Source: Minisyncoccota bacterium (GTDB lineage Bacteria; Patescibacteriota; Minisyncoccia; UBA6257; 02-FULL-45-10c). From it: a stretch of DNA of 64,000 nt. Of the stretch, positions 2,925-57,650 are shown in pieces (the stretch's first letter is position 1; every line of letters starts with the position of its first letter). The notes beneath the pieces were generated by a model that was not told the DNA's origin, made no database searches, and was given only the letters and a program-made list of their open reading frames with translations. Position numbers and translations under genes: made by a program. The stretch covers positions 6,510 through 70,509 of the forward strand of contig DATDXY010000001.1 in the NCBI GenBank assembly GCA_036517155.1, in the 5' to 3' direction.

Positions 2925-4301
2925 ATGGTCTTTTGGTCGGAAAAGAAAATCCTTTGGGGAATAATCGGTCTGTATATCCTTATATTTGGAGTTACTACGG
3001 CAATCCGGCAGTATCATTTTCAAACTCAGGCGTGGGATATGGGTATCTTTACCCAAATTTTCTGGAACGCCGCTCATGGCAACGGTTTTACCGGCACTTT
3101 GGAAGAAATTCCAAACCATTTTGGTATTCACTTCAGCCCGTTTTTTTATATCTTGCTTCCCTTCTATGCGCTTTTCCCCAGAGCGTATACATTACTCTGG
3201 CTACAAACCATAGCGCTCGGCCTCGGCGCATGGCCGTTGTATGCATTGGCTAAAAAAATTCTCCAGGACCAGCGCTGGGCGATTATTATTACCGTTGGCT
3301 ATCTTTTATATCCCTCGCTGCATTGGATTAATTTTTTTGATTTTCACGAAATCGCTTTTTTTATTCCCCTTTTTATTACTGCTCTTTATTTTCTAGAAAC
3401 TGCCCAATGGCAATGGATGTCGCTTTTTTTACTCCTCGCCGCAATGACCCGGGAAGATGCGTCGGTGTTTATATTTTTTGCGGGAATATACGCTTTATTG
3501 AAACGCCAAAAAAAAGCCGGTATCGGTATTCTGATTTTTTCGGCCATTTATTTTCTCATATCCGCCAAAATGATTATGCCAGCATTAGGCGGCGGACTCT
3601 TGCGCTTGGACCGTTACGGCCAATTCGGCTCCACTGCGTCGGAAATTATTAAAAATATCCTTACTCGGCCAAGTTTATTATGGACAACTGTCGTGACTGC
3701 GGAAAAATTCCAATATCTGCTTTGGTCGTTTTTACCCGTTGCTTTTCTGCCGTTTTTTTCCCGATTCGCATTTCTCTTGCTTGCTCCCGGATTATTGGAA
3801 AATCTTCTGACTCGCTACGGATCCCAATTCAGCGGCTTATACCAATATGATGCAGTGCTGATCCCGGGAGTTTTTATCGGGGCCATGTATGGTATTTATT
3901 ATTTACAAAAATATCCGAAACAGTATCTGCAATATCTAATAATTGGAACAATAATCACGGGTTATTTATTGCGCTCTCCCCTGAATCCGATTTCTTTTCC
4001 GCTGGAAATTTTCCAATCCAATCCAAAATGGGACTCCTACCGGACTATACTGCAATTCATACCGGCTCAGGCGAGCGTTGCTGCGCATACCAATTTCGTT
4101 CCTCATCTGGCGCAGAGAAAAAATATTTTTATGCTTGGCCAGGAAACCCTAGAACCGGATTATCTCCTCATCGATGCCACGGATGCATTTGGGTTCAAAA
4201 ATGAAGTGGAGTTTAATGCGTATTTTGACCGTTACGCCGAATCCGGGCTGTATGAAATAAAAGTATTTGAAGGAAAATACCTCTTGCTTGGAAAAAAATA
4301 A
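2925..4301 (+). CDS. Polytopic membrane protein, DUF2079-like (GT-C-like fold family).
   Basis: 458 aa with more than 10 predicted TM helices. N-terminus HFQTQAWDMGIFTQIFWN resembles DUF2079 proteins. Confidence 0.5.
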   Translation: MVFWSEKKILWGIIGLYILIFGVTTAIRQYHFQTQAWDMGIFTQIFWNAAHGNGFTGTLEEIPNHFGIHFSPFFYILLPFYALFPRAYTLLWLQTIALGLGAWPLYALAKKILQDQRWAIIITVGYLLYPSLHWINFFDFHEIAFFIPLFITALYFLETAQWQWMSLFLLLAAMTREDASVFIFFAGIYALLKRQKKAGIGILIFSAIYFLISAKMIMPALGGGLLRLDRYGQFGSTASEIIKNILTRPSLLWTTVVTAEKFQYLLWSFLPVAFLPFFSRFAFLLLAPGLLENLLTRYGSQFSGLYQYDAVLIPGVFIGAMYGIYYLQKYPKQYLQYLIIGTIITGYLLRSPLNPISFPLEIFQSNPKWDSYRTILQFIPAQASVAAHTNFVPHLAQRKNIFMLGQETLEPDYLLIDATDAFGFKNEVEFNAYFDRYAESGLYEIKVFEGKYLLLGKK

Positions 4302-4317
4302 ATTCTTCCGTAATAAC

Positions 4318-4341
4318 AAAGCTCCCCATCTGGGGAGCTTT
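4318..4341. terminator. Bidirectional intrinsic terminator hairpin between convergent genes.
   Basis: aaaGCTCCCCAtcTGGGGAGCttt: perfect 8-bp GC-rich stem flanked by A/T runs on both strands. Confidence 0.6.
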
Positions 4342-4353
4342 GCGTTTATAGGC

Positions 4354-4569
4354 TTATCTGCCAAATCCTCCTCGGTTTCCACCGCTGCGGAAGCTTGGGC
4401 GACGCTTTTTATTGCAATCGTAGCAATACAAGCGACCATAAGTTCCGTCTTCCCGTTTTGTCGGTTCGAACGGCAACTCTTTGATGGCTGCGCCACATTC
4501 CGTGCAGGTTAAATTTAACGCTGACACATCATGCAATTGGCGCTGTCCGCCACCGAAATTTCTGTCCAT
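4354..4569 (-). CDS. Small C4 zinc-ribbon protein with a Gly/Arg-rich (RGG-like) C-terminal tail.
   Basis: CTECG...x19...CYDCNKK followed by RRPSFRSGGNRGGFGR. Confidence 0.45.
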   Translation of the reverse strand: MDRNFGGGQRQLHDVSALNLTCTECGAAIKELPFEPTKREDGTYGRLYCYDCNKKRRPSFRSGGNRGGFGR

Positions 4570-4765
4570 TTCGCCTTAACTCAATTATAAATATCGTGTT
4601 AGGCGAACGACATCTAATAGATTACTTAATTGAAACTCTACTTATCGCCTTTTTACGATAAAAACAGTATAGCAGATTACCCAGAAAAAGTCAAAGCGCT
4701 CAGAGAAATCAATTTCTCTTGGTTTTCTCTCCATAAGTTTTGTTCGAATTGGTATACTATATATA

Positions 4766-5989
4766 ATGCATTTATCTATGACTCGCGGCTTTACTCTTTT
4801 GGAACTTCTGATCGTTATTGGCATTATTGCAATTCTTGGCATTGCTTCAGTTTTACTTCTTAACCCGGCGGAGTTATTTTCCCAAAGCCGAGATTCGGTC
4901 CGTATTGCGGAAAACAAACAACTAGATTCTGCCGTTGCTTTGTACAGAACAAGCGCGCAAGCAAATCTTGGTAATTTAAATACAATTTATATTTCCCTAC
5001 CCGATACCTCATCTACTTGCGCCAATTTATTAAATACCCTACCCACATTACCTTCAGGCTGGTCTTATCATTGCGCTTCTTCGGAAAATTATCGAAGAAT
5101 TGATGGCACTGGTTGGTTACCATTAGATTTTACAGCTACGAGTCTTATTCCCTTTTCTACCCTGCCAATTGATTCAGTCAATACGACAACAAATAATTTA
5201 TATTACTCCTACATCAATAATGGAGAACATTGGGTTATTACTTCAAAATTGCAATCCGCAAAATATCTGAAAGAAAATGCTTGGCCAGACGGCGGCGATG
5301 ACTCCACTCGATTCGAAACTGGCACCGATGCCAATCTTTGGTCCCAAGCCAGCGGCCTAATCGGTTATTGGAAATATAACGCTAACGCGCTTGATGCGTC
5401 TGGAAATAATATTAACGGAACATTAGTGCCACCGTCTGGCGGTGTTTATTCCGATACTGGAAAATCCAATCAGGGTTATCATTTTGTCGGTACTGGCGGG
5501 CATATTAATTTTGGATCGCCAGCCATTGCCCAACTCACCGGACCAATAACAATCATGACTTGGGCGAATCTGGATGTCGACCCGCCGCTTGTGGAGCGAT
5601 ATATTTTCGATAAATCCAGCGTGACAAGCAAAGGATGGGGCCTTTCCATACAACCCGGTCCATTTGCCAGATTTCGCATTTCTTCCGATGGCACTAATAA
5701 CATTACCGCTACCACGGGCGCAATTCCGATTACTCAATGGATTCATATCGCCGGCGTATACGAACCAAACACCGCCATCCGCGTATACGTGAACGGGGTT
5801 TTGTCTGCGAATAATACTACTGCCATACCGGCAAGCCAATTTAATAACGTGGCTTCCAACCTTATCGCCGGTTACGAACCCGGATGCGGCAGTTGTTATT
5901 ATTACCGAGGTATTTCGGATGAAGTGCGTCTTTATAATCGCGCGGTCACTGCTACAGAAATCCAAGCCTTATACGAAGCAGAAAAATAA
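4766..5989 (+). CDS. Type IV pilin-like protein (prepilin N-terminal methylation motif) fused to a LamG/concanavalin-A-like lectin domain.
   Basis: MTRGFTLLELLIVIGIIAILG class III signal with Glu+5. C-terminal LamG hallmarks: GYWKYNANALDASGNN..., ...RVYVNGVL..., DEVRLYNRAVTATEIQALY. Confidence 0.8.
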   Translation: MHLSMTRGFTLLELLIVIGIIAILGIASVLLLNPAELFSQSRDSVRIAENKQLDSAVALYRTSAQANLGNLNTIYISLPDTSSTCANLLNTLPTLPSGWSYHCASSENYRRIDGTGWLPLDFTATSLIPFSTLPIDSVNTTTNNLYYSYINNGEHWVITSKLQSAKYLKENAWPDGGDDSTRFETGTDANLWSQASGLIGYWKYNANALDASGNNINGTLVPPSGGVYSDTGKSNQGYHFVGTGGHINFGSPAIAQLTGPITIMTWANLDVDPPLVERYIFDKSSVTSKGWGLSIQPGPFARFRISSDGTNNITATTGAIPITQWIHIAGVYEPNTAIRVYVNGVLSANNTTAIPASQFNNVASNLIAGYEPGCGSCYYYRGISDEVRLYNRAVTATEIQALYEAEK

Positions 5990-5993
5990 GTTC

Positions 5994-7625
5994 TTAAGAT
6001 TTTACTAAATGATCAAAAGAATATTGTAAGTTCCCATTCACTTTTTTACCTGGATTAAAAATATTTTGGGGATCAAAAATTTTTTTGGTTTCTTCAAACA
6101 TCAGGTAAATTTTTTCGCCATACATCTTTTCCAAATATGGCGTGCGAATCAAACCGTCATTGTGCTCGGCGGTAATGGAACCCTTATATTCCACCACGAG
6201 ATCATATACTTCATGGGAAAGCCGATCAATAATATCTCGCGTATCCGACTTACTCACATCCATCAGCGGAATAATATGGAAATTCGCATCTCCCACGTGG
6301 CCGGCAATGGTATAGATTAAATTGTATTTGTCCAAAATAGAATTTAACCGAGGCAGAAATTCCGGTAATTGTTCCACATGAACCGCAAAATCGTCAATAA
6401 ACGGCGCCGTTCTTTTCCCTTTAATGTGTTGACGTAACAAATTGAAGCTTTCCCGTCGAATAGTCCAATATTTTTTTGCCTCATCCGGATCCGCTACCAC
6501 CCGAAAGGGCACGTGTAATTGTTCCAACTTGGATTGCAACTTTTTCAGACGATGAGCAATTTCAAAATCTTCATCGCCGGTAAACTCCGCTAATAATACT
6601 AATTTCGGCAAACCGCCGGTTAATACCATTTTCATTTCCGGAATAAAATCCCACGCCATTTTCAAAAGATTTTTTGGCTTCAGCACTTTTAATAAACTAG
6701 GCAAGAACCGCAACGCCAATTTCAGGGTATGATCATCATACGATTCAAAACTTTCTGGTTTGAATTCCATCACCGCTTGGGCAACGGGCACCAACGGTTT
6801 CAAATCTTTCAAAAAAATTACCACCATTTGGGAATGCAATTTGGGCCGAATCAAATGGAATTTAATTTCCGTGACTAATCCCAGCGTTCCTTGGGATCCA
6901 ACTAACAATTTAGTGAGATCAAAACGTTCGCCATCCCACACGTTCCATAAATAATAACCGGCGGAATTTTTGGATACGTTGGGTTTAGCGCTCTTTAACA
7001 GGGCCTGATTTTTACTGATTAACTGATACAGTTTTTTATAAATCCCGCCTTCAAAACTTTTTTCTTTGATTTTTTTGTCTAATTCTTTTTTAGAAAGCGC
7101 CTTAATGCTATATTCATTGCCATCGCTCCAAACCATTTTTAATTCCTCAACATAATTTTCTGTTTTGCCGTAAGCCAACGTTTTTTCCCCACCAGAATTA
7201 TTGGAAACCATTCCACCGACCGTGCAAATTTCCCGCGAAGCCGGATAACTGGGCATCAATAATTTCCGCTTCAGTGATTCTTTTTCAAAATCCCGATAAA
7301 ACACCCCGGGTTGCGCTACTCCGTAATCCGTCCCAAATCCGCGGATTCGATTAAAATGCTTGGTAAAATCCACCACGATGGATTCCGTGAGCGGGCCGCC
7401 GGTCATATCCGTTCCTCCGGAACGCGCGGTGAGAGATAATTCCGGATGCTGTTTTTTCTGCGCGCTGACAAACTTAACCAACTGTTTTACGTCTTCAACG
7501 TCTCGCGGTGCCACTGCGGCGGACGGCATCACTTCAAATAAACTGGCATCGTGGCTATAAATTTTCAACGCTGTTGCGTCGGTAAGTATTTCTCCTCGAA
7601 AATTTTTTTTCAGTTCATCCAACAT
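5994..7625 (-). CDS. FAD-linked oxidoreductase, GlcD / D-lactate dehydrogenase family.
   Basis: N-terminal FAD_binding_4-like region (AVAPRDVEDVKQLVKFV...ARSGGTDMTGG) and FAD-oxidase C-terminal region. Confidence 0.7.
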   Translation of the reverse strand: MLDELKKNFRGEILTDATALKIYSHDASLFEVMPSAAVAPRDVEDVKQLVKFVSAQKKQHPELSLTARSGGTDMTGGPLTESIVVDFTKHFNRIRGFGTDYGVAQPGVFYRDFEKESLKRKLLMPSYPASREICTVGGMVSNNSGGEKTLAYGKTENYVEELKMVWSDGNEYSIKALSKKELDKKIKEKSFEGGIYKKLYQLISKNQALLKSAKPNVSKNSAGYYLWNVWDGERFDLTKLLVGSQGTLGLVTEIKFHLIRPKLHSQMVVIFLKDLKPLVPVAQAVMEFKPESFESYDDHTLKLALRFLPSLLKVLKPKNLLKMAWDFIPEMKMVLTGGLPKLVLLAEFTGDEDFEIAHRLKKLQSKLEQLHVPFRVVADPDEAKKYWTIRRESFNLLRQHIKGKRTAPFIDDFAVHVEQLPEFLPRLNSILDKYNLIYTIAGHVGDANFHIIPLMDVSKSDTRDIIDRLSHEVYDLVVEYKGSITAEHNDGLIRTPYLEKMYGEKIYLMFEETKKIFDPQNIFNPGKKVNGNLQYSFDHLVKS

Positions 7626-7687: not shown

Positions 7688-9817
7688 TTATTCCACAACA
7701 ATTATTTTTCCGCTCACGCTAGGATTCAAGTGATCGTGATATGGCCATGTGCCAATTTTTTCAAACATAAAAGAGTAGCTTTCTCCGTTGCCAATGCCTT
7801 TGAAAGCGTCGAATCCGGAATACATCTGATGCGACGGATGATCATTAGATGCCGGCCAGACAAAAAGCTTTCCTTTATTTACCCAAGTTACTTTGCCGCC
7901 TTTTCGCACCTTGATTTCCGCCGGATCAAATTGGCCGTTTTCCGTGATGATTACAGATACGTGCAATAAAGGATCAATTGCGATAGCGGCGGTAGTAGTT
8001 GCTTCAACTTGACCAGATTCCATGCTTTCATCCAGCACCGATGCTCCGGTTTCTGCTGATTTTACTTCGCACATTCCTTCCCGCGCTACTTCTATTTTTG
8101 CCGCTTTGGCAAAACAACGGTTGGAATATGTATTGCCATCAGCGCCACAGACTGGATTATATTCTAATGTGCATAATTGCGGTGGTTCTGTAGGCTCCGA
8201 TGGTGGTTTTATTGCCGATTCACAAGTGCCTTCGTGAATGACAACAACTTTAGCAACGCGCGCCTGGCAAGCATTACCATAAGTCTTGCCGTTTGCGGCG
8301 CATACTGGTTTATATTCTTTCGTGCATATTACTGGCTCTGGATAAACTGGTGTCACCGATACTGGCAAAGGTTTTACGCCCCGAATTTCCATTTCTATTA
8401 ACCGGGAAAGGTTGTATAAATATTCCCGCACGTGGTTGGTATGCAATCGCGCGCTGGCGGCATCATTTTTTTCCAATGCTTCTCGCGCTAATTCCAAATG
8501 CTTTTTCGCATCTGCTAGTAAAGCAAATACTTTGGGATTTTTTTCTTCGGTATATCCTTTTTCCTGAACGAGTTGCGCATACTTTTCAATTTTTGAAGAT
8601 AATTCATTAAGAACTGTTTTAATATCTTCTACGGGATTTTCTAATTTACTAATGAAACGCAACGCACTGCGCGCCAATACTTCCGCCGAACGCGCATGAC
8701 CGAAGGCTTCTCCATATTTTCCAGAAGCAAATACCAGCTGCGCTTCTTTTACATTTTCTTGCGCTTCCAAAAGCAATTTCTTTGCGGTTTCCTCCGGATA
8801 ACTGCCTTCTATTAATTTCTTTTCTGTCTCGGAAATTACTTCCAGGGCGCGCTTAATTTGTTCTTTGGCTTTTTCGGCAATGTCTTTCTCTTGGATAGTT
8901 GATTTCTCCAATAGATCTGCCACTCGGCCTAACGTTTCTGCTACTCGAAATTCCGCCTTTGTCCGTATCTCGTCCAACAATATCAAACGCCGCGCATTAT
9001 CACCCGGCAATGCTTGTACGGCTGATTCAATGGATTGAGAATTCTCGGTTTTTAATAATTCTTGGATGTCCTGTTCCAAACGAATAGAAAATTCATTGCG
9101 CATTTTATTCAGCGCGTCCCGTAAATCATCCGGCGCTTTTTGCTCCAAACGATCTAAAATCTCTACGGAACGGATATGCTTCAATTCGCTGCCCTTGGAA
9201 GAAATCAGCGCTTTTTCTAATTTGGACGCAAACTCTACTGGATCGCCTTTGGCGGCCGCAGCAATTGTAGCATCATCAATTTTCCCCTGCGTTTCATTCA
9301 CAAGATCATGAATCTCGGATTCTTTTTCAAATTTTTGGGCAATTTCGTCAAATACTTTTTGATGCTGAACGCTCCGATCCGTAACTTTATTCAACAAATT
9401 GTCTATTTCTGGATTTTGAGATTTTTCTTCCAGCGCTTCTAAACGGTCCTTCAAACGCTCTTGCGCTTCTTGATAATTTTGCAACGCGCCCATAATCGCT
9501 TCCGTATCTTCTGGTTTTACTTCCTCAATTTTTTTTGCCTCGGCGGCTTTTTGATTGGCAATTCGCAATTCGTATTCTACTCTCGCAACTGGATCGAATG
9601 TGAACACCCGTCGCACTCCCCGGCTCCATTCTTTCAAGAAATAAAATGGGTTGCCAGGTAAAATACCCGGGTTATCCACGCCTAATTCTTGCGATGTAAT
9701 GGTTTCTAATTGCGCTAAATTGAGCGGCTTATAATCTTCCGCCGCCAACACGGTTAATGCCACAAAAAACAAAGCCCCTAAAACTGTAGTAATTTTTACT
9801 GTATTTCTCATATTCAT
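7688..9817 (-). CDS. Secreted or anchored multidomain protein: signal/TM, long coiled coil, two Kazal-type inhibitor domains, C-terminal cupredoxin-like domain.
   Basis: Two Kazal motifs: CTKEYKPVCAANGKTYGNACQARVA...C and CTLEYNPVCGADGNTYSNRCFAKAA...C. C-terminus KVTWVNKG...HPSH...GESYSFMFEKIGTWPYHDHLNPSVSGKIIVVE resembles plastocyanin/amicyanin, but with Asp in place of the Cu-ligand Cys. Confidence 0.7.
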   Translation of the reverse strand: MNMRNTVKITTVLGALFFVALTVLAAEDYKPLNLAQLETITSQELGVDNPGILPGNPFYFLKEWSRGVRRVFTFDPVARVEYELRIANQKAAEAKKIEEVKPEDTEAIMGALQNYQEAQERLKDRLEALEEKSQNPEIDNLLNKVTDRSVQHQKVFDEIAQKFEKESEIHDLVNETQGKIDDATIAAAAKGDPVEFASKLEKALISSKGSELKHIRSVEILDRLEQKAPDDLRDALNKMRNEFSIRLEQDIQELLKTENSQSIESAVQALPGDNARRLILLDEIRTKAEFRVAETLGRVADLLEKSTIQEKDIAEKAKEQIKRALEVISETEKKLIEGSYPEETAKKLLLEAQENVKEAQLVFASGKYGEAFGHARSAEVLARSALRFISKLENPVEDIKTVLNELSSKIEKYAQLVQEKGYTEEKNPKVFALLADAKKHLELAREALEKNDAASARLHTNHVREYLYNLSRLIEMEIRGVKPLPVSVTPVYPEPVICTKEYKPVCAANGKTYGNACQARVAKVVVIHEGTCESAIKPPSEPTEPPQLCTLEYNPVCGADGNTYSNRCFAKAAKIEVAREGMCEVKSAETGASVLDESMESGQVEATTTAAIAIDPLLHVSVIITENGQFDPAEIKVRKGGKVTWVNKGKLFVWPASNDHPSHQMYSGFDAFKGIGNGESYSFMFEKIGTWPYHDHLNPSVSGKIIVVE

Positions 9818-10926: not shown

Positions 10927-10984
10927 TTACCTATATATTTAAACTAATCTAGCGTAGTTCCTTGGAATATTCAAAGGAGGTATC

Positions 10985-11155
10985 ATGGCCGATCCATTGA
11001 GTTCAAAAAACTCTGACGCATCAAAATGCCGAGGCGGACTAATTATTGAAAAAAGTCGATGCTGTGGCGCGCCTCTCCGCTATACAACCGGCTTCATTGT
11101 GGAAATCTGCACCAAGTGCGATAATCCAAACCCGCCGCCAACACTCTATAAATGA
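10985..11155 (+). CDS. Small Cys-rich ORF (56 aa) with a strong SD, antisense to the queA-tgt intergenic region. Not in the ORF track because it is under 60 aa.
   Basis: caAAGGAGGtatcATG. MADPLSSKNSDASKCRGGLIIEKSRCCGAPLRYTTGFIVEICTKCDNPNPPPTLYK. Followed by a perfect hairpin terminator. Confidence 0.3.
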   Translation: MADPLSSKNSDASKCRGGLIIEKSRCCGAPLRYTTGFIVEICTKCDNPNPPPTLYK

Positions 11156-11163
11156 TGCAACAT

Positions 11164-11187
11164 AAAAGGACACAATTGTGTCCTTTT
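11164..11187. terminator. Bidirectional terminator hairpin.
   Basis: aaaAGGACACAatTGTGTCCTttt, perfect 8-bp stem. Lies at the 3' end of tgt (minus) and of the small + ORF. Confidence 0.55.
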
Positions 11188-12331
11188 ATATTTTTCCGTT
11201 TTTTATCGCATCTCTAATTTGCGCAATATACGCATTGAAATAATGCATATTGTGGAAAGTCAGCAATTCCAATGGAGTAATTTCCCACGCTTTTAGAAGA
11301 TGATGAATATAGCTTCGCGAATAACTTTGGCAGACATAGCAAGAACATTTTTTATCCAGCGGTTTTTTGTCTTGCGCAAATTTGGATTTGGAAATATCGA
11401 CTCTACCTTCCGAAGTAAACGCGACACCACGACGCGCGTAATGGGTCGGGGTGATGCAGTCAAAGGTATCAATCCCCGCTTCCGCTATGATTTTCATATC
11501 TTCCAAATAGCCGATACCTAACAAATGTTTTGGTTTGGCTTCCGGTAATTCCGCCATTACCCAGCCAAGCATTTTCCCCATTTCTTTTTTGTCATCGCCA
11601 AATTCGCCGCCAATACCAAAACCATCAAAGTCCATTTTCCCGATAAACCTCGCACTTTCTATCCGCAAATCCTGAAACTTACCGCCTTGCACGATGCCAT
11701 ACATTGCTTGCTTGGATTTTTTAATCTTCAAACACAGCTCCGCCCAATCATGGGTTTTCAAAAGAGATTTCTTCGTGTATTCGTGGCTGGCAATCGGTGA
11801 GGTGCATTCGTCAAACGCGAAGATAATATCCGCGCCCAGTGATTCCTGGATTTTAATAGATTCTTTGGGGCCAAGAAAAACTTCCCGGCCGTCTATGTAG
11901 GAACGGAATAAAACTCCCTCATCGTTAATTTTTAATAATTTTGGCTGTTGTCCGGTTTCTATCTGCCGTCGATCAGCTGCCGTTGGCCGTTTTAATATTT
12001 TCCCCTGGCCGAAATCTTTTCCGAAACCCAAGCTGAATACCTGAAAACCGCCGGAATCGGTCATCAGCGGTTTCGGCCAGTTCATGAACTTATGAATCCC
12101 GCCATGGGATTTAACAATTTTTTCTCCCGGCCGCAAATGCAGATGAAAAGTGTTGGCAATCAAAAGCTGGCTGCCGGTTTTTAAAACTTCTTCACTGGTC
12201 AGGGCTTTTACCGTGGCTTGGGTTGCCACCGGTACAAATGCTGGCGTTTCCACCACACCATGAGGAGTTTCTAAAAGACCGAGACGGGCCCGGCTTTTGG
12301 AAGATTTTTTGATAATTTTAAAACTAATCAT
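11186..12331 (-). CDS. tgt: Queuine tRNA-ribosyltransferase (tRNA-guanine transglycosylase).
   Basis: RLGLLETPHGVVETPAFVPVAT N-terminus. Zinc site CSCYVCQSY...HHL at the C-terminus. Confidence 0.85.
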   Translation of the reverse strand: MISFKIIKKSSKSRARLGLLETPHGVVETPAFVPVATQATVKALTSEEVLKTGSQLLIANTFHLHLRPGEKIVKSHGGIHKFMNWPKPLMTDSGGFQVFSLGFGKDFGQGKILKRPTAADRRQIETGQQPKLLKINDEGVLFRSYIDGREVFLGPKESIKIQESLGADIIFAFDECTSPIASHEYTKKSLLKTHDWAELCLKIKKSKQAMYGIVQGGKFQDLRIESARFIGKMDFDGFGIGGEFGDDKKEMGKMLGWVMAELPEAKPKHLLGIGYLEDMKIIAEAGIDTFDCITPTHYARRGVAFTSEGRVDISKSKFAQDKKPLDKKCSCYVCQSYSRSYIHHLLKAWEITPLELLTFHNMHYFNAYIAQIRDAIKNGKI

Positions 12332-12614: not shown

Positions 12615-14288
12615 TTATAATTCTGAAAAATATATCTTAAATACTTCGTCTCCCCGTTGATTGGCAATCGTCGCAATCTCCCGCTGAGTCAATTGTTCCA
12701 TTCCGGGGAACGAGACGATATTAGTTTGGTTGATAAAGTATAGATACTGAAAACCAACGCGTTCATAATAATCAAAACCATTTTGTTGCAGGTATTCAAA
12801 ATAAGTCTTGACGCTGATGATTGGCCAACCGTGGTAAATGTGCAGCCTATCCAATATCCATAATTTTGGACCTTGATCAAAATTGCCATAGTAAACAAAA
12901 AGCGCGGGATAAGGTTGTCGAAATTGCTCGCGCGCTTTCTGGGTAGCCTGATCTCGGATGGCTTCCAGAAATTTATATTTGACGTTAAATACCACCGCCG
13001 GCATTTTTCCTTCCAATTCTTTTTCTAACCAAGCATTCAATTCGTTATAGCCCCAATTATAATTTTCATAACGGACTTTGGAACTAAACCAGGGTTGCGG
13101 GCCAATCGGGTAATAAGCAATTTGATTATTCCAGGTATACGCAATTTCAAAACTAAACACGAGCGTAAGAAAAATCACGAAAATGGTTGCGTAGCGGGCG
13201 CGAGTATTCAGCCACGCCAGAAAAATCCCAACTCCCAAAATCATAAAAGGTGTCAGCATGGTCAGAAAACGATATGATGGTCCGATTTTCAGAATCAGCG
13301 CAATCAGCCAAACAAATGAAATTAATAATAAAGCATATTTTCGTAAAACAATTTTCGCATCTTTAAAAAATCTAAAGATAAACGTTAAAACACTCGCAAA
13401 AAACAACGATAAAAATAACCAAGAATTAGTAGCAATGAGCCGAAATGGAAAATTCCTTATCCGATCCAGCGCACTGCCAATTTCTTTTCCCGGCGTCACT
13501 TGCCATACTTCCGGATGCTGGCCAAAAATAAAAGAGAATTGAAAATCAAAATACCCGACGGCTTTATACAACTGCCAGTTATAAATTAAAACCGGGCTGA
13601 AAAATAACACCGCAATCAAAGTGCCAAACCAAAACTTTTGATTCCGGAAACAATCCCGCCGGAAAAAAATAAGATACGTGCATAAAATCGGAACAATGAT
13701 AAAAGCTGTATATTTGGAAAGTATCCCCAGTCCGATGGCAACCCCGGTCCAGAAAAAATACTTGTCATTTTCCAAAGCTTTTAAGAACCAATATAAAGAA
13801 AGCAAGAAAAAGAAAATCACATAGGCTTCTTGCATCCCAGTACGCGATATATACACGCCATTCAAGGTAATTGCGTATAAAGCGGCAGCATACAGTCCGA
13901 CCCTTTCTGAAAAAAGTTTTCTTCCTATGACGTACAAAAGATAGACTGCGCCGATTCCCAACAGCACCGACGGCAAACGGAAACCAAAAACGCTTTCGCC
14001 GAATACTTTCATAAATCCATTTTGGATAAGAAAGAGCAGGGGCGGCTGATCATGGAAAGAAAGCCTGAGCCACCACGGCTGAACTTGCCCTGAGCTCGTC
14101 GAGGGGTCAAACCATTCCAAAGGCGTGGTCTGCACTGGCGATTCATCAAAATCCATCATTCCGACTGCTCGGAATGCCAGCGACGATTCATCGCTCATAG
14201 TATCTCCTCGCCCAAGACCAAAAAGCCGCAACAACGCTGCTATTACTAAAATACCGAGAAGCAGCCTGCGTTTTAATTGTTCGTTCAT
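12615..14288 (-). CDS. GT-C family glycosyltransferase (ArnT / PMT-like, family 39-like).
   Basis: 557 aa polytopic membrane protein. N-terminal region LLLGILVIAALLRLFGLG... with a loop-1 acidic motif region, typical of ArnT/PMT_2. Confidence 0.6.
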   Translation of the reverse strand: MNEQLKRRLLLGILVIAALLRLFGLGRGDTMSDESSLAFRAVGMMDFDESPVQTTPLEWFDPSTSSGQVQPWWLRLSFHDQPPLLFLIQNGFMKVFGESVFGFRLPSVLLGIGAVYLLYVIGRKLFSERVGLYAAALYAITLNGVYISRTGMQEAYVIFFFLLSLYWFLKALENDKYFFWTGVAIGLGILSKYTAFIIVPILCTYLIFFRRDCFRNQKFWFGTLIAVLFFSPVLIYNWQLYKAVGYFDFQFSFIFGQHPEVWQVTPGKEIGSALDRIRNFPFRLIATNSWLFLSLFFASVLTFIFRFFKDAKIVLRKYALLLISFVWLIALILKIGPSYRFLTMLTPFMILGVGIFLAWLNTRARYATIFVIFLTLVFSFEIAYTWNNQIAYYPIGPQPWFSSKVRYENYNWGYNELNAWLEKELEGKMPAVVFNVKYKFLEAIRDQATQKAREQFRQPYPALFVYYGNFDQGPKLWILDRLHIYHGWPIISVKTYFEYLQQNGFDYYERVGFQYLYFINQTNIVSFPGMEQLTQREIATIANQRGDEVFKIYFSEL

Positions 14289-16556: not shown

Positions 16557-17570
16557 TTATAACAAATTTGGCTGATACAAATAAGACTGGTCTGCCTCGC
16601 GAACCACTTTTGCCATCATTTCTAATGATTCCACCGGATATTTTCCGGATGCGGTTTCGTCGGACAACATCACCGCGTCTGTCCCATCCCACACCGCATT
16701 GGCAATGTCGGATATTTCCGGACGAGTCGGGTGCGGATGATTCACCATTGTAATCAGCATTTGCGTAGCAACAATGGAGGGCTTGCCATACCAGGCTGCC
16801 TGCCGAATTAAATTCTTCTGGACAAATGGAACTTTTTCCGGTGCGATTTCCACTCCCAAATCGCCGCGCGCTACCATAATACCATCCGCCTCTTTAATGA
16901 TTTCATCTATATTCTTCAATGCCATCGCCATTTCAATTTTGGCGATAATTTTAACATCTTTCCCAACTAACACGCGCAAAGCTTGGACATCTTTTGCGGA
17001 TTGCACAAAAGACAAAGCAATATAATCCACTCCTTCCTCCAATGCGAAGGCCACGTCTTTTTTATCTTTATCGGTAAAACCGCTCGTAGTTAATTTCGTT
17101 TCCGGCACATTTACTGCTTTATAAGAAAATAAATGTCCGCCGCGAATTACTTTGGCGGTAAACTTATTGCCCGACACATTCGTAACTACCAGTTCAATCA
17201 AAGCGTTAGAGAGATAAATTGGATCGCCTTTTTTGATATTTAAATGCAAATAGGGATCGTCAATGTGAATCACGTTTTTTTCCGGCCCATTGGTGGAAAA
17301 AACTACGGTATCATTCTGGTGGATACGAATGCCCTCTTCCGGCAATTTACCCACGCGAATGCGCGGGCCGCGCAAGTCTTGCATAACGCTGATTTTTCTT
17401 TTGAATTTTTTGGAATATTTTTCCGCTAACTTTTTTCGAAGGCGATATTCGGGATACGTGCAATGAGAAAAATTAATTCGCGCGATATCAAAACCAATCT
17501 TCGCTAATTGAGAAAAGACTTGCTCGGATTCGGAACTCGGGCCAATGGTGGCAATGATTTTGGTACGCAT
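16557..17570 (-). CDS. pyk: Pyruvate kinase, short form (barrel and A domains, no C-terminal regulatory domain).
   Basis: MRTKIIATIGPSS...ARINFSHC...MQDLRGPRIRVG. Confidence 0.8.
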   Translation of the reverse strand: MRTKIIATIGPSSESEQVFSQLAKIGFDIARINFSHCTYPEYRLRKKLAEKYSKKFKRKISVMQDLRGPRIRVGKLPEEGIRIHQNDTVVFSTNGPEKNVIHIDDPYLHLNIKKGDPIYLSNALIELVVTNVSGNKFTAKVIRGGHLFSYKAVNVPETKLTTSGFTDKDKKDVAFALEEGVDYIALSFVQSAKDVQALRVLVGKDVKIIAKIEMAMALKNIDEIIKEADGIMVARGDLGVEIAPEKVPFVQKNLIRQAAWYGKPSIVATQMLITMVNHPHPTRPEISDIANAVWDGTDAVMLSDETASGKYPVESLEMMAKVVREADQSYLYQPNLL

Positions 17571-17648
17571 GCTGTTATGAATATTAAGTGTTTGATTATA
17601 TCAGAAAATATGCCAAAAGACAACTTTGGTTACTTAATGAGAGAATAA

Positions 17649-17876
17649 TTATTTAACTTTTTCTACGCCAAGGACATTCTTTTTATTTCGTTCACTGAAT
17701 ACAAAAATATATAAAATATCCAATATCGCGAGGGTTTGCAGCAGCAAAAGCGCGATAAACCACTTTTGTTGGCTTTTCCGCGCCGCTTTCCATAATGCCA
17801 TTCCTTTCCATGGCAATGTCCACAATAACAACGCGGCAAGCGCTAATTGTTCCCCGTTGGAAAGTGTTTCGTACAT
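17649..17876 (-). CDS. Small membrane protein.
   Basis: 75 aa, two hydrophobic helices. Confidence 0.3.
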   Translation of the reverse strand: MYETLSNGEQLALAALLLWTLPWKGMALWKAARKSQQKWFIALLLLQTLAILDILYIFVFSERNKKNVLGVEKVK

Positions 17877-17880
17877 ATCT

Positions 17881-18081
17881 TTATAATCCTAAATTACTGT
17901 AATTAATGGTTTTCATAAATTGCGGAATCGCGAACACCAAGCCGATGATCGGCAAAACAATCACCGCCAAACTGATGATTAAAGTCCATAAAAAATACTT
18001 ACGAGTTTTTTCTACCGAACGGTACACATAATCCACTTTTTGCTCCATAGCGGCCAATCGGTCAGACAGTTCTTTATCCAT
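17881..18081 (-). CDS. Small membrane protein.
   Basis: 66 aa, one TM helix. Confidence 0.3.
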   Translation of the reverse strand: MDKELSDRLAAMEQKVDYVYRSVEKTRKYFLWTLIISLAVIVLPIIGLVFAIPQFMKTINYSNLGL

Positions 18082-18089
18082 AGATCTTA

Positions 18090-18875
18090 TTGTATCATAA
18101 TACTATTATGACTTACACGCTGGTATCGTGGAATGTAAATGGCGTTCGCGCGGCAGAGAAAAAGGGCTTTCTAAAGTGGCTGCTCAAAACCAATTACGAC
18201 ATTGTGAATATTCAAGAGACGAAAGCGCACGTGGAACAACTGCCCAATACGCTGATTCATCCGGATGGTTATGAATCCTATTGGAATTCCGCCGAACGCA
18301 AGGGTTACAGCGGCGTCGCAACCTATACAAAGGCATCGCCGATTCTTTCCATATCCAATTTCGGCAATAAAATATTAGATGGCGAAGGCCGGATTTTACT
18401 TTCCGAATATGAAGAGTTTTATCTTTTCAATGTATATTTTCCCAATGGCGGTCAGGGGCCGGAACGATTGAAATTCAAATTGAAATTCTATGAGGCATTT
18501 CTCAAGTTAATAGAAAAGTTCCGAGAGAAAAAACCGGTGGTTTTTTGCGGTGATGTGAATACCGCCCATCAGCCGATTGATTTGGCGCGACCGAAAGAAA
18601 ATGAAAATAGTTCCGGTTTTCTCTCTATTGAGAGAAAATGGATTGATAAAGTGATTGCCACTGGATACATAGATACTTTTCGCTTATTGGAAAAAGGCGG
18701 TCAACACTATACTTGGTGGGATTACAAGACTTTTGCCCGCGATCGGAATATCGGCTGGCGGATTGATTATTTTTTTGTCAGCAAAGAATTACAGAAACGC
18801 GTGAAACGCGCGTGGATTGAGCCAAAAATCATTGGCTCGGATCACTGTCCAGTGGGATTAGAAATTAACTTTTAA
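18090..18875 (+). CDS. xth: Exodeoxyribonuclease III / AP endonuclease.
   Basis: LVSWNVNGVRA...DIVNIQETKA and C-terminal SDHCPV motif. Confidence 0.85.
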   Translation: MYHNTIMTYTLVSWNVNGVRAAEKKGFLKWLLKTNYDIVNIQETKAHVEQLPNTLIHPDGYESYWNSAERKGYSGVATYTKASPILSISNFGNKILDGEGRILLSEYEEFYLFNVYFPNGGQGPERLKFKLKFYEAFLKLIEKFREKKPVVFCGDVNTAHQPIDLARPKENENSSGFLSIERKWIDKVIATGYIDTFRLLEKGGQHYTWWDYKTFARDRNIGWRIDYFFVSKELQKRVKRAWIEPKIIGSDHCPVGLEINF

Positions 18876-18878
18876 CGC

Positions 18879-20114
18879 ATGCCATATAATAATCGCCAAT
18901 CGTTTACGTTGCTGGAGTTGCTGATTGTTATTGGAATTTTGGGTATTCTGGGAATTATTGTCGTTTTGGTGCTAAATCCGGCGGCCCTCTTTTCTCAAGC
19001 GAGAGACGCTAATCGGATATCGGAAATACTAAGTATCAATAAAGCGATTAAAATTTATCAAACCTTAGGCGGAACTACTGGTGGGGTATCAGATACCGTA
19101 TACATCTCTATTCCCAGTAATTCCGCGACGTGCGTCGGTTTGAATTTGCCTACTTTGCCTGCTGGTTGGTCATACCAATGCCAAACTCAAGATAATTTCC
19201 GAAAAATGAATGGTACGGGTTGGATTCCGATTAATTTCACTACTATCTCCGCTGGATCGCCTTTCGCTACTCTGCCGATTGATCCGATCAATGACGCAAC
19301 AAAAAATCTGTACTATGCCTATATAGACGGCGGTGGAGTCGTTCCAAGTTATGAAATTCTCGCTACCTTAGAATCGGAAAAATATCTTCAAGACAGCTCC
19401 TCCAAAGATGGCGGTACCGATCCAACGAAATATGAAGAAGGAACTAATTTAATTTTATGGGCCGAGGCCTCCGGTTTGCTTGGTTATTGGCCATTTGACG
19501 GCAATGCCCAAGACAGCTCCGGTAACGGATACCATGGTTCAATTATTGATGTTGGACCGCCATCGCCAACTTTTATAACCGGACAAATAAACCAAGGACT
19601 TAACTTACCAGGAATATTCTCCCGAGTCGATGCTGGACAGTCCTTGCCCATTCTTGGCCTAACAAAGGCCACGGCATCTTTCTGGATTAAATTTAATACT
19701 TTGCCAAGCATTGCCGGGAATCCTTTTGCTCTTATGGGGCGTTGGACTGGTAACGATGCAAGTCGAGTATTTGGGATTTTTATTCGAGATCCAAACACAA
19801 CAGCAATGGCAACCGATAATCCAACTCAAAAGATTTCTTATCTAGCCATTCCCACCCTCCAAACCGGACAATGGTACCATTTTGCTTATACTTATAATGC
19901 CGGTAATGGTAACTTTTATATTGATGGTGAAAATATCGGCGCTTTTTCCGGCCTAGACGCATCATTACGAATTTCTGCCCCTAGCAGTAGCTTCACTATT
20001 GGCGCTGATTCCGAGCCATATGGACCATCTAATGCGACTTTTGACGATGCAAGATTCTATAACCGATTGATGACTGACCAAGAAATTCAATCGATATATT
20101 TGTCCGGAAAATAG
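18879..20114 (+). CDS. Type IV pilin-like protein fused to a LamG-like lectin domain (paralog of 4766..5989).
   Basis: RQSFTLLELLIVIGILGILG. LamG region GYWPFDGNAQDSSGNGYHGSI ... DDARFYNRLMTDQEIQSIY. Same architecture and length as the 4766 gene. Confidence 0.8.
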   Translation: MPYNNRQSFTLLELLIVIGILGILGIIVVLVLNPAALFSQARDANRISEILSINKAIKIYQTLGGTTGGVSDTVYISIPSNSATCVGLNLPTLPAGWSYQCQTQDNFRKMNGTGWIPINFTTISAGSPFATLPIDPINDATKNLYYAYIDGGGVVPSYEILATLESEKYLQDSSSKDGGTDPTKYEEGTNLILWAEASGLLGYWPFDGNAQDSSGNGYHGSIIDVGPPSPTFITGQINQGLNLPGIFSRVDAGQSLPILGLTKATASFWIKFNTLPSIAGNPFALMGRWTGNDASRVFGIFIRDPNTTAMATDNPTQKISYLAIPTLQTGQWYHFAYTYNAGNGNFYIDGENIGAFSGLDASLRISAPSSSFTIGADSEPYGPSNATFDDARFYNRLMTDQEIQSIYLSGK

Positions 20115-20123: not shown

Positions 20124-20158
20124 AAAATGCCCCCGATAAATATCGGAGGCATTTTTTT
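20124..20158. terminator. Bidirectional terminator hairpin.
   Basis: aaaATGCCCCCGATaaatATCGGAGGCATttttttt between convergent genes. Confidence 0.5.
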
Positions 20159-53687: not shown

Positions 53688-54167
53688 ATGCTCGCAAGCC
53701 AACTAGATATTCGTTTAATTTTCGGCATCGGGAATGCCGATGCCGCTTATCATCGAACCTATCACAATGTGGGGATTTTAATGGCGGAATACTTGAAAAA
53801 ATCGATACCGGAACGAGCAAATCAAACCCATATAAACAAGGGTTTTATGAATGTTGTAGGAAAAGAAGTCGCTCGCGCATTGAAGAAAAATCACATAGCA
53901 CCGACGCACCTGCTTGTCATCCATGATGATTCAGATATCCCATTGGGCCGCTTTAAATTGTCTTTTGACCGGAATTCCGCTGGCCATAAAGGAATAGAAA
54001 GCATTATTCAATCTCTAAAAACCAAAGCTTTTTGGCGATTACGGATAGGAATCCGAGCGCTTCGCAATACTCGGCCAGCAGAACAGTTCGTGCTGAAACG
54101 CATTACTGCCGCTCATCTTAAACAATTAGAAACTGTATTTGCGTCCGCGCTCCGACCGTTACAGTAA
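53688..54167 (+). CDS. pth: Peptidyl-tRNA hydrolase.
   Basis: LIFGIGNADAAYHRTYHNVG (catalytic His region) and D in VIHDDSD. Confidence 0.8.
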   Translation: MLASQLDIRLIFGIGNADAAYHRTYHNVGILMAEYLKKSIPERANQTHINKGFMNVVGKEVARALKKNHIAPTHLLVIHDDSDIPLGRFKLSFDRNSAGHKGIESIIQSLKTKAFWRLRIGIRALRNTRPAEQFVLKRITAAHLKQLETVFASALRPLQ

Positions 54168-55664
54168 TTGAAAACTGATCACAAAAGAAACTGTGCCTTC
54201 CGAATTATCCAGTACGTCGGCTGGCTTTAAGTCCGTTGATTTTATCCCATTCGCTTCGGCAAGTTTGTTTTTAAAATTTACAATAGTTGTCCGGCTTGTA
54301 GCTTTGCCATTTAACACGCCAGTCGTATGGTCGCTATTAACTATGATGGCAGTGACAGTAATAGAGGAATTTTGCGCAATTTCAAGAATGGAGTGAAAGA
54401 CCGGTAAAAAATCGTTGGATTCAATTTTTGCGGCCAACGCTCGTTGGGCCAGCGTATTAAATTCAACCGCTTTTTGCACCAATTCATTCATTTCTCTAAC
54501 AGCTGGATTAGCATCTAAAGCTTGCAAGTCATTTTCAATGACTTGTTCCGTTTTCCATAAAAAACCGTCACTTACTACAAACACCAATACCAAAAAACCT
54601 AGCGTGGTAATCGTAATGCTTTCCCATAATTTTACAAAGGATTTAATTTCATTGTGGGAAAATTGTTCTTCCGTATCTACCGGAGAAAGGCTGATAAAAT
54701 TATCCTCCGATCTTGGAATCAATCCCCGTAACGCGCTGCCACAGGCAACATACCAAGAAGCCGGTAAATCGGAAAAATCGCGCAGTTGCAACGATTTTAC
54801 TTCTATTGATGGAAAGGCTTCTTTAATGATTTTTTCAATTTCTTGATAAAGACCGTGCGTCATCAGCGTTAATTGTGTCGCTTGACCGCCCCAGTGGCTG
54901 CTGTAAAAAGTGAATATTTTTTTCATTTCTTGAATTAAAATCTGATTAAAAACATTCAATAGAATTTCCCGGGAATCCTGACTGACGCCGCCCTTGATAG
55001 ATGACCAAGAAACAAAATAACTGAAATATACATTACCATCCTTTACAATCAGAAAATCTAATCCGTCTCCGGAAACCGAAAGGGTAACTTGGGGCTTCTT
55101 TAAATCAATGCCTACGGATTGCATTTTAATTACTCGGCTTATGGCCAAAGAAGGGAACTCTACCGCCGCGGCTATAAAACCCGCTTGTTCCAGTGCTGTC
55201 AAGAATTCGTCCACTACCGGTTTAGCAACGAATGCTCCCAAAAGCTCAATTTTATTTCCTTCCTGACCATCACTCAAACGTTCCCAATCCGCATAGGATG
55301 TTTGCGCATCAACCGGTGATAACATTTGCAGATTCAATGCAGCGGCTTCTTTGATATTAGCTTCGTTTAAAATCGGCAAAGAAAATGCTTGGGTATATAT
55401 ATGATTCGGCGGCAAAGATAAAATCACGGAAATCGTATCTCGAGAACGCCCTAATTGTTCTTTCAAAGACACCAATGCCTGCAAAAATTGCTCAACATTT
55501 TTTAATTGGCCATCCTCAATTACTCCGGCATCCAAACTTACACCTATTTTTTTCAATTCTTTTCCCTGTAATTCTACAAAACGAATCGCTGCGTCGCTAA
55601 TTTCCAAACCGCCTATGGAAAGTTGCGGTTTTAACAATGCGCCAAGATTTTTTAAAAACGGCAT
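54159..55664 (-). CDS. pilM: Type IV pilus assembly protein PilM (actin-like) fused to a PilN-like TM/periplasmic segment.
   Basis: N-terminal ~330 aa actin-like fold (LSIGGLEISDAAIRFVEL...), then a TM helix (LGFLVLVFVVSDGFLW), then a ~130-aa coiled/alpha-beta tail. Last gene of the pilus operon. Confidence 0.6.
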   Translation of the reverse strand: MPFLKNLGALLKPQLSIGGLEISDAAIRFVELQGKELKKIGVSLDAGVIEDGQLKNVEQFLQALVSLKEQLGRSRDTISVILSLPPNHIYTQAFSLPILNEANIKEAAALNLQMLSPVDAQTSYADWERLSDGQEGNKIELLGAFVAKPVVDEFLTALEQAGFIAAAVEFPSLAISRVIKMQSVGIDLKKPQVTLSVSGDGLDFLIVKDGNVYFSYFVSWSSIKGGVSQDSREILLNVFNQILIQEMKKIFTFYSSHWGGQATQLTLMTHGLYQEIEKIIKEAFPSIEVKSLQLRDFSDLPASWYVACGSALRGLIPRSEDNFISLSPVDTEEQFSHNEIKSFVKLWESITITTLGFLVLVFVVSDGFLWKTEQVIENDLQALDANPAVREMNELVQKAVEFNTLAQRALAAKIESNDFLPVFHSILEIAQNSSITVTAIIVNSDHTTGVLNGKATSRTTIVNFKNKLAEANGIKSTDLKPADVLDNSEGTVSFVISFQLL

Positions 55665-55673
55665 ATTGATGAT

Positions 55674-56090
55674 TTACAAAGGTAACTCTTTAATAGATTC
55701 CAAACTTACTTCGCCAAAAGCTGATACGGACACAATCGCTTCCACTTTCCGGCTTCGAGTTAATGCCGTTCCCGTTGAAGAAATTTTGCGATTACCCACA
55801 CCGCCGCACTCCGGTAATGTGGTGCAAATTTCTACAGTGACATTTGCCGTATTGACGGAAAATTGATAACTGGTGGGGAAATTATTATTATCTCGAGCCA
55901 GGCGAATTAATCCGTCCTGAACGCCAGCATACGCCGCAGCCAGAGCTTCCGAAGAAAGCCTGGATCCTAATCCAGAAGTACTCAATAAATACACCCCAAC
56001 AGTAAGCACGATCATAATATTCACCACTACACCGCCAAGCACTAATAATGTTGGCAACGCTGCAATACCCCGATAAGATGTAAATTTCAT
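55674..56090 (-). CDS. PilX/GspK-like minor pilin-type protein.
   Basis: Start taken at MKFTSY. One TM helix then SSEALAAAYAGVQDGLIRL, resembling the conserved post-TM motif of PilX/GspK-like proteins. Confidence 0.4.
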   Translation of the reverse strand: MKFTSYRGIAALPTLLVLGGVVVNIMIVLTVGVYLLSTSGLGSRLSSEALAAAYAGVQDGLIRLARDNNNFPTSYQFSVNTANVTVEICTTLPECGGVGNRKISSTGTALTRSRKVEAIVSVSAFGEVSLESIKELPL

Positions 56091-56098
56091 AGTGTAAT

Positions 56099-56986: not shown

Positions 56987-56987
56987 T

Positions 56988-57650
56988 TTAAGGATAAGTG
57001 TAACCGGAAATTCTGATTGCTCCGGGGCTTGTTGTAATATCAACGTTCCCGGATCCGATAAAATAACGACTTCCAAAATCCAACACCGGTCCGGCCGTAG
57101 CGCCGCCGGCTGACCAATCAGTTTGTTTGGCAATTTTCGGTCCCCAACGAGTAAGATAACTAGAAATTTCTAAATGACCAGGCTGGCTCGGCACATCCCA
57201 ATCAACGCCAACAACAATTTTTTGGGTGGAAGGGTCTTCCCGAGACGGCGTGAAGGTTGATTCGATATCGCCATTCCCATCTCGAGAAACATTTTCTAAA
57301 TAGAAATAACGTCGATACGTAATGCCATTGACCACCAATGATTCTTCCGCGCCTTGATTAACAATAAATTGACCGCCCGAAACAGTAAGATAGTTTTTTT
57401 TTGCCAAATCCAGTGGAGGTGCTTTGGGCAATGCATAAACCACCGACCATTGGGCTTCAGAAAATGCGCGCGCATTATCCAACAAGCCATTAGCAAATGA
57501 ACCAGCGGCTTGGTTTTGTTCATTAGAATTTCCAGATCGCAACACCAAAAAAAGCGAACCGGTTGCGGCACTGATCATTATAATGCTGATCCCCAAACCA
57601 ATCACTGCTTCAATTAACGATTGGCCTCGATTATAATACTGCTTAATCAC
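56988..57650 (-). CDS. Pseudopilin / minor pilin (prepilin-type N-terminus).
   Basis: NRGQSLIEAVIGLGISIIMI: G|QSLIE class III signal with Glu+5. Confidence 0.6.
   Translation of the reverse strand: MIKQYYNRGQSLIEAVIGLGISIIMISAATGSLFLVLRSGNSNEQNQAAGSFANGLLDNARAFSEAQWSVVYALPKAPPLDLAKKNYLTVSGGQFIVNQGAEESLVVNGITYRRYFYLENVSRDGNGDIESTFTPSREDPSTQKIVVGVDWDVPSQPGHLEISSYLTRWGPKIAKQTDWSAGGATAGPVLDFGSRYFIGSGNVDITTSPGAIRISGYTYP

Follow-up and report, generated by a model that had tools for sequence, protein, structure and literature searches.

Two genes in a 64-kb stretch of DNA (hereafter the window; contig DATDXY010000001.1) encode pilins that end in a laminin G-like (LamG) domain. The window comes from a metagenome-assembled genome of Candidatus Paceibacterota (Patescibacteria, or candidate phyla radiation, CPR), an ultra-small groundwater bacterium. 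The two proteins, copies 1 and 2, are probably modular type IV pilins that present ligand-binding LamG heads on a pilus, with heads that are exchanged as blocks. Over evolutionary time, whole LamG blocks have been swapped, whereas the pilin stalk has kept its locus. As a result, related genomes bear different heads at one locus, and distant genomes can share a head. The combination of a stable locus, a stable stalk and a replaceable head is the main new result, and we did not meet it in the literature searched.

The initial annotation placed two genes for proteins of ~410 amino acids (aa) in the window, and both open reading frames (ORFs) have exactly these positions. Each consists of a leader, a pilin module and a LamG module, as follows.

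4766..5989, plus strand: copy 1, modular type IV pilin, 407 aa (HEY4499514.1)
4766-4789, plus strand: copy 1 leader MHLSMTRG, as read from the N-terminus
4790-5353, plus strand: copy 1 mature pilin module, beginning FTLLELL
5354-5986, plus strand: copy 1 LamG module
18879..20114, plus strand: copy 2, modular type IV pilin, 411 aa (HEY4499527.1; ORF, Pfam and AlphaFold2 evidence)
18879-18902, plus strand: copy 2 leader MPYNNRQS, with Ser at position -1
18903-19472, plus strand: copy 2 pilin module
19473-20111, plus strand: copy 2 LamG module

The class III prepilin N-terminus and the LamG domain that had been claimed for both proteins are recovered above the Pfam gathering cutoffs. N_methyl matches residues ~4-28 with 23.5 bits in copy 1 and 26.9 bits in copy 2 (cutoff 21.2), and Laminin_G_3 matches residues ~242-404 with 80.5 and 71.9 bits, respectively (cutoff 27.6). 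TIGR02532 scores 23.2 bits in copy 1 (cutoff 16.3) and slightly under the cutoff in copy 2 (15.2 bits). The LamG motifs quoted in the initial annotation occur in copy 1, and copy 2 contains only looser forms (DSSGN, YIDGE and DDARFYNRLMTDQEIQSIY). The mature N-termini share Phe+1 and Glu+5 (copy 1, MHLSMTRG followed by FTLLELLIVIGIIAILG; copy 2, MPYNNRQS followed by FTLLELLIVIGILGILG), as well as the sequence FTLLELLIVIGI of the hydrophobic N-terminal helix half, alpha1N (~20 residues). Residues F+1, T+2, L+3 and E+5 (F9, T10, L11 and E13) are at least 90% conserved across 80 homologs. Both proteins combine an IPR012902 pilin module with a C-terminal domain that is not specific to type IV pili, which is the definition of a modular pilin (PMC8179133).

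Structure prediction with AlphaFold2 on the 80-sequence alignment returned both a pilin and a LamG beta-sandwich at high confidence for the two copies. The predicted local distance difference test (pLDDT) is 92.3 for copy 1 and 90.6 for copy 2, with a predicted template modelling score (pTM) of 0.88 each. In both models, a helix of 50 residues at the N-terminus is followed by a small beta-sheet head and, C-terminally, by a beta-sandwich. A helix at residues 11-62 and strands inside residues 73-186, with pLDDT >90, give the "lollipop" fold of type IV pilins. The pilin head spans ~130 residues with a conserved Cys85-Cys103 pair, and a LamG/concanavalin A (ConA)-like sandwich of ~210 residues is packed on it, with the two-sheet jelly-roll of the ConA-like superfamily in both copies. 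Profile searches of the PDB matched the LamG-type S-layer domain protein 4qvs (E 4e-29) and, for the N-terminal helix, geopilin and PilA. Since the models contain the LamG fold and homologs retain the prepilin N-terminus, neither a missing fold nor a poorly conserved N-terminus can be held against the initial annotation.

The exchange of heads emerges from comparisons with syntenic genes. The ortholog of copy 1 is P0002 (L001), with a shared order of zinc-ribbon gene, LamG pilin, FAD oxidase and Kazal protein. Synteny extends to a DUF2079 gene upstream and QueA downstream. The two proteins are 53% identical in the pilin module and 94.8% identical in LamG. DNA identity rises from 45-62% to 84-92% at window positions ~5370-5395 and stays high to ~6110, inside the convergent FAD-oxidase gene, the rest of which is ~70% identical. 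The proportion of synonymous differences (pS) is 0.45 for LamG and 0.40 for the 40 codons at the end of the FAD-oxidase gene, versus 0.72-0.77, which is saturated, outside the tract (pilin module, rest of the FAD oxidase, QueA and DUF2079). Because pS is this low inside the tract and saturated in the background, the ~720-bp tract of LamG and FAD-oxidase end has a more recent common ancestor with L001, beyond mere conservation. The ortholog of copy 2 is P0003 (L068), in the order xth, LamG pilin and short-chain dehydrogenase/reductase (SDR). The DNA of the xth and SDR genes is 75-83% and 67-83% identical, respectively, and that of the pilin module 68-81%. Identity collapses in the LamG core and is regained in the last ~17 codons. 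The two segments concerned are the following.

5390..6110: tract shared more recently with L001, comprising the LamG module and the last ~40 codons of the FAD-oxidase gene
19530..20060: LamG core of copy 2, replaced relative to L068 (residues ~217-394; DNA identity 29-48% here only)

Two further comparisons show the same mosaic. The close relatives L062 and L067 are 88-92% identical in the flanks and pilin module, ~40% in LamG and 91-97% directly past the gene. The paralogs P0041 and P0043, on different contigs of GCA_026004475.1, have 100% DNA identity from -26 to +690, ~40% in the LamG core and ~80% over the last ~90 nt. Across the family, two pilin modules are on average 44% identical and two LamG domains 31%, and many pairs have pilin modules at least 93% identical with LamG at most 35% identical. 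Left breakpoints lie at or just past the module junction (GLxGYW..D.SGN). Right breakpoints fall within the C-terminal motif DEVRxYNRxLxxxEI or, past the gene end, in flanking genes. The breakpoint motifs are the same as those highlighted in the initial annotation and may act as homology anchors. The four independent comparisons, with their sharp breakpoints, show that the pilin and LamG halves have separate histories.

The proposal that the duplication suggests diversification holds in spirit. The two copies in the window are old paralogs, though, and the signal of diversification is the replacement of LamG blocks between related genomes. Aligned along their entire length, the proteins are 38% identical (E 2e-68), with 51% identity between pilin modules and 34% between LamG modules, and the variable core of LamG differs between all copies. 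Recent gene conversion between copies 1 and 2 was rejected as they have no 12-mer in common. No signatures of diversity-generating retroelements (DGRs), shufflons or pilS-type silent cassettes were found in the window, and tblastn detected no extra LamG copies or fragments there. Repeats of at least 30 nt in the window, direct or inverted, involve neither LamG gene beyond chance-level matches, and no reverse transcriptase or recombinase occurs among the scanned window ORFs. Head exchange here takes place between genomes or paralogs over evolutionary time and is not demonstrably programmed.

The observed block replacements invite a more far-reaching and tentative suggestion. LamG heads might be exchangeable cassettes that redirect pilus adhesion and thereby alter the host range or attachment specificity of ultra-small episymbionts. 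Recombination at the junction and C-terminal motifs, or in flanking genes, would then move heads between paralogs and between Paceibacterota lineages. We regard this as possible, with the balance of probability somewhat against it. If true, such cassettes would parallel, in bacteria, the swapping of receptor-binding domains in phage tail fibres.

The pilin half belongs to a carrier module in wide use among Patescibacteria. A profile of the three copies of the pilin module in the window (~190-195 aa), the third of which is described below, was searched against 1.84 billion cluster representatives and retrieved 1514 at E <= 1e-30. Domains were scanned in the best 115 of these 1514 representatives. 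N_methyl is found in 106/115 and Laminin_G_3 in 83/115; a few representatives are the module only (~195-225 aa). Other fusions among the best 115 involve Fib_succ_major, Fibrinogen_C, FG-GAP, FGE-sulfatase (C-type-lectin fold), CBM_4_9 and, in one case, a polysaccharide lyase. Named sources of family members are all Patescibacteria (Parcubacteria, Wolfebacteria and "Patescibacteria group"). A contig scan with the family alignment picked up the generic pattern FTL[LIV]E[LI]L[IV]V[IL] and returned mostly unrelated pilins of Planctomycetota, Verrucomicrobiota and others, so the scan was useless for copy-number statistics.

Some members of the family stand out. At least three LamG pilins are encoded in GCA_026004475.1 (Parcubacteria), two of them in tandem (L066 2537..3769 and 4001..5182; L065 2715..3908). 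The identical 5' ~715 bp of its paralogs P0041 and P0043 might stem from gene conversion or an assembly artefact. Carrier modules fused to FGE-sulfatase/C-type-lectin-fold domains occur at L062 2479..3519 and in P0068, P0070, P0089, P0094, P0100 and P0102. This fold is typical of DGR targets. L062 also has a reverse-transcriptase gene ~6.5 kb from its LamG pilin.

The third copy of the module, absent from the initial annotation, lies inside a pilus operon on the minus strand of the window. It has no LamG domain and is a candidate major pilin. By tblastn it matches the first ~190 residues of copies 1 and 2 (E 1.6e-28 and 4.5e-33), and their pilin modules are 43-45% identical to it. The first 17 mature residues (FTLLELLIVIGILxILG) of the LamG pilins and the operon pilin differ by one substitution and the x position. 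An extended -10 element, TGaTATAAT, lies upstream of the gene. The 200-aa pilin heads the operon, in which the order is response regulator, pilin, 197-aa membrane protein, PilB and PilC, followed by a GspH-like minor pilin, two more pilin-like proteins, a 344-aa repeat protein and a PilM-PilN fusion. A cognate assembly machinery, with PilB, PilC, PilM/N and further pilins, is encoded at 54159..62355 as follows.

61753..62355, minus strand: pilin-module paralog without LamG, 200 aa, candidate major pilin (tblastn; N_methyl; HEY4499579.1)
59398..61131, minus strand: PilB-type assembly ATPase (Pfam T2SSE 1.4e-115, MshEN)
58174..59385, minus strand: PilC-type platform protein (Pfam T2SSF 5.7e-52)
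55674..58160, minus strand: putative minor pilins and accessory proteins (sequences; N_methyl and GspH-like matches)
57666..58160, minus strand: GspH-like putative minor pilin, MQKRG/FTVSEL
56988..57650, minus strand: putative minor pilin or accessory protein with NRG/QSLIEAV
56099..57133, minus strand: repeat protein, 344 aa
55674..56156, minus strand: further small protein
54159..55664, minus strand: PilM-PilN fusion, 501 aa, assembly sub-complex (weak Pfam PilM_2 and PilN matches)

Two of the operon proteins deserve mention. The 344-aa protein has one transmembrane segment and three W-x-W-N-D-x-[IV]-x-W-[IV]-x-F repeats (KWAWNDIVSWIDFQY, GWGWNDAIGWVSFNC and GFAWNDIIGWISFNC), with zero Pfam or NCBIfam matches, and may be a pilus-associated surface protein. 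In two genomes, a polytopic membrane protein of 187-197 aa is conserved, with its gene located between pilB and the major pilin gene(s) (61115..61708, minus strand, in the window; 18281..18844 in L062). We did not call the 197-aa protein PilD because it lacks a GxGD motif and matches nothing in Pfam, NCBIfam or the PDB. Given the Ser or Ala at position -1 in the pilin family, it may be a divergent prepilin peptidase or an assembly factor. The relative L062 has an identical operon layout, and its LamG pilin also lies among housekeeping genes, between fructose-bisphosphate aldolase and ribosomal protein L25.

We read the LamG proteins as pilins because their alpha1N is near-identical to that of the operon pilin, their pilin module is homologous to it, and PilB, PilC, PilMN and minor pilins are encoded in the window. 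A prepilin peptidase encoded outside the window would remove the leader. The PilB/PilC/PilMN machinery (54-62 kb) would then add the LamG pilins to a pilus made mainly of the 200-aa pilin (61753..62355), with entry likely provided by the alpha1N helix that is nearly the same in both. The LamG pilins would most likely be low-abundance subunits at or near the tip, where LamG is displayed as a head. The head probably binds a glycan for attachment to a host cell or surface. The proposal in the initial annotation that the fusion puts a binding module on the pilus fits the hidden Markov model evidence, the predicted structures and the genomic context. It also agrees with experimental results on this architecture in Streptococcus sanguinis PilC (PMC9934059) and with the role proposed for PilX1 of Saccharibacteria (PMC11623550).

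The LamG proteins could instead be major subunits of separate, thick LamG-decorated filaments, as alternative major pilins that use the single machinery. The carrier module and the candidate major pilin are of one family, LamG is predicted to pack rigidly and not on a tether (pTM 0.88), and two pilus types are possible in Patescibacteria (PMC11623550). The operon pilin of the window, however, is 45-48% identical to the L062 operon pilins and ~30% identical to the L062 LamG-pilin module, and operon-type pilins and LamG carriers form distinct subfamilies across genomes. Copy 2 moreover has no strong promoter signal and abuts a DNA-repair gene, all of which makes separate decorated filaments quite improbable.

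Another explanation is that the LamG proteins are membrane-anchored surface proteins and not filament subunits. The class III signal and helix would tether LamG to the cell surface or to a short pseudopilus, resembling the PibD-processed sugar-binding proteins with class III signals in Sulfolobus. Such an anchor would suit the location of the LamG genes outside the pilus operon, among housekeeping genes, and the frequent Ser or Ala at -1. PibD-type peptidases also act on proteins other than pilins, sugar-binding proteins for example (PMC4307647), and PilX1 and PilX2 of the Saccharibacteria TM7x likewise have no predicted PilD signal (PMC11623550). Against this, conservation extends beyond the helix to a whole globular pilin module of ~190 residues, which is homologous to the operon pilin. 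Co-assembly is suggested because Glu5 and alpha1N are near-identical to those of the operon pilin, and in S. sanguinis a protein of the same architecture has been proven to be part of the pilus (PMC9934059). We consider a mere surface anchor unlikely.

The C-terminal domain might also be an enzyme, a ConA-like glucanase or lyase that the pilus brings to host or environmental polysaccharides for degradation. A Polysacc_lyase domain is indeed fused to one relative of the carrier module. The Pfam match of the window copies is nevertheless Laminin_G_3 and not a glycoside hydrolase (GH) family, and the best matches among those listed are non-catalytic (AbnA domain 4, toxin HcN, CBM40, pentraxins and LG domains). 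At least 90% of homologs conserve Trp, Gly and Tyr residues and the DEVRxYNR signature, while the variable core lacks a conserved acid pair. An enzymatic role is very improbable.

Several observations weigh against displayed, ligand-binding pilin heads exchanged as blocks. The conserved LamG residues are a fold signature, and no conserved sugar- or Ca-binding site was identified among them. The nearest structural neighbours include LamG domains without known ligand (clostridial toxin HcN), and the predicted rigid packing of pilin on LamG (pTM 0.88) is unlike the flexible linkers of S. sanguinis PilB and PilC. The 100% identical block of P0041 and P0043 could be partly an assembly artefact. Prepilin peptidase and PilT were looked for and not found among the scanned window ORFs. 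The residue at -1 is Gly in copy 1 and Ser in copy 2 (window 18900-18902), and the canonical prepilin leader ends in Gly (PMC8179133). Family-wide, the counts at this position are G 49, S 38 and A 25 (n=112), and Ser dominates among closer relatives (S 49, G 21, A 4; n=74). Canonical PilD cleavage of copy 2 is not guaranteed, given its Ser and the mixture of Gly, Ser and Ala across the family. The roughly comparable numbers of the three residues are in themselves a departure from the canonical Gly(-1).

The domain architecture as such is already catalogued. Raynaud et al. 2021 (PMC8179133) list N_methyl (IPR012902) with PF13385 as one of the most frequent modular pilin architectures and include Patescibacteria proteins as representatives, and the "IPR012902 + PF13385" type is exactly that of the window copies. 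The survey works at the level of architecture and covers neither this carrier family nor its relation to the operon pilin nor LamG block replacement. The window alone adds little new because the architecture was catalogued before, and the block exchange of heads is the added value.

Two other pilin systems offer points of comparison. S. sanguinis PilC (PDB 7oa7) is a minor pilin modelled at the tip, and its ConA-like module binds sialylated glycans and heparin-type glycosaminoglycans (PMC9934059). Like the window copies, PilC is a type IV pilin of modular build that carries a ConA-like lectin domain, yet the likeness is at fold level only. Orthology was rejected, as 7oa7 is not among the best 60 of 119 PDB profile matches. 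PilC has a short distorted pilin moiety and an Ig-like module, whereas in the window copies a complete pilin module of ~190 residues, a homolog of the operon pilin, is joined directly, and apparently rigidly, to LamG with no Ig-like module. The PilC gene lies in the pil locus and the LamG pilin genes of the window are dispersed. In TM7x, lectin-like minor pilins and sugar-inhibitable host binding have been reported (PMC11623550). PilX1 and PilX2 resemble the window copies as type IV pilins of Patescibacteria with a C-terminal domain similar to carbohydrate binders. Their C-terminal domain is a beta-jelly-roll or propeller. The two pilins are implicated in host binding, and no canonical PilD signal is predicted for them. 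They belong to another phylum-level lineage and are encoded in pilus loci; the PilX1 domain is unrecognised by domain databases, whereas the window copies are clear Laminin_G_3 matches. A match to TafC of haloarchaeal Tat-fimbriae (NF052521) was rejected, with 35.7 and 15.4 bits against a cutoff of 410 and in the LamG region only. Taf subunits are Tat-secreted (PMC11821415).

The exchangeable heads recall a broader set of variable-head adhesin systems, including the R64 shufflon PilV, Neisseria pilE/pilS and domain swapping in phage receptor-binding proteins. These likewise join a constant N-terminal assembly part to an exchangeable C-terminal binding part. They differ in that silent cassettes, invertible repeats, a recombinase or DGR elements were not found in the window. 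Patescibacteria presumably live attached to other microbes, and little is known of how they recognise their partners. Lectin-like heads displayed on pili are prime candidates for partner recognition. The present genome is a clean example, as it holds two dispersed LamG pilins, a homologous pilin without head and an assembly operon. With the head as the exchangeable part at otherwise stable loci, there is a testable handle on attachment specificity.

The LamG genes lie 34 and 48 kb from the pilus operon (~54159..62355, minus strand), among housekeeping genes, so the initial annotation was right to place them away from it. Copy 1 is flanked by DUF2079 and FAD-oxidase genes, and copy 2 by exonuclease III (xth) and SDR genes. 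The claim that each gene has its own promoter and terminator was abandoned because of the gene spacing and a promoter scan at the level of shuffled sequences. In the two upstream regions, promoter-like matches numbered 6 versus 4.6 +/- 1.8 in shuffles and 7 versus 6.0 +/- 2.7, hence no excess. Copy 1 has an AT-rich upstream spacer of 196 nt with -10-like hexamers, and no hairpin was found 3' of the gene, where its stop is 4 nt from the convergent FAD-oxidase stop. The exonuclease III gene (18090..18875), in the same orientation, ends 3 nt before the ATG of copy 2, which makes co-transcription the simpler reading. The sole promoter-like match near copy 2 overlaps its start codon. One terminator-like element was found:

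~20128..20158, plus strand: terminator-like hairpin and T-run, 3' of copy 2, between convergent genes

Upstream of copy 1 (window 4748..4768), an extended -10-like TGgTATACT ends ~8 nt before the ATG, and a Shine-Dalgarno sequence is not obvious. The mRNA may be leaderless.

The surroundings of the LamG genes show further features. The DUF2079 membrane protein upstream of copy 1 (2925..4301, plus strand) is duplicated in the relative L001 (5742..8571). A 709-aa protein at 7688..9817 (minus strand) contains DUF5667, two Kazal-type serine-protease-inhibitor domains and a cupredoxin-like C-terminus, and its syntenic counterpart in L001 is shorter (470 aa). Kazal domains are uncommon in bacteria. 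Beside queA, L001 has cas1-cas2 (16854..18157) and the window has a tRNA-guanine transglycosylase gene (~10927..12331), so gene content differs locally where synteny is otherwise kept. A PMT_2-family glycosyltransferase gene (12615..14288, minus strand) is located between the two LamG genes. This gene and the DUF2079 gene might be connected with glycosylation of pilins or the envelope. On another Patescibacteria contig, an FtsH-like protease gene (AAA and Peptidase_M41; L064 3006..6212) directly downstream of a LamG pilin is split by an intein with a LAGLIDADG endonuclease. The genome of the window is near-clonal (99.9-100% DNA identity) across several metagenomes, and scaffold names point to the Rifle aquifer.

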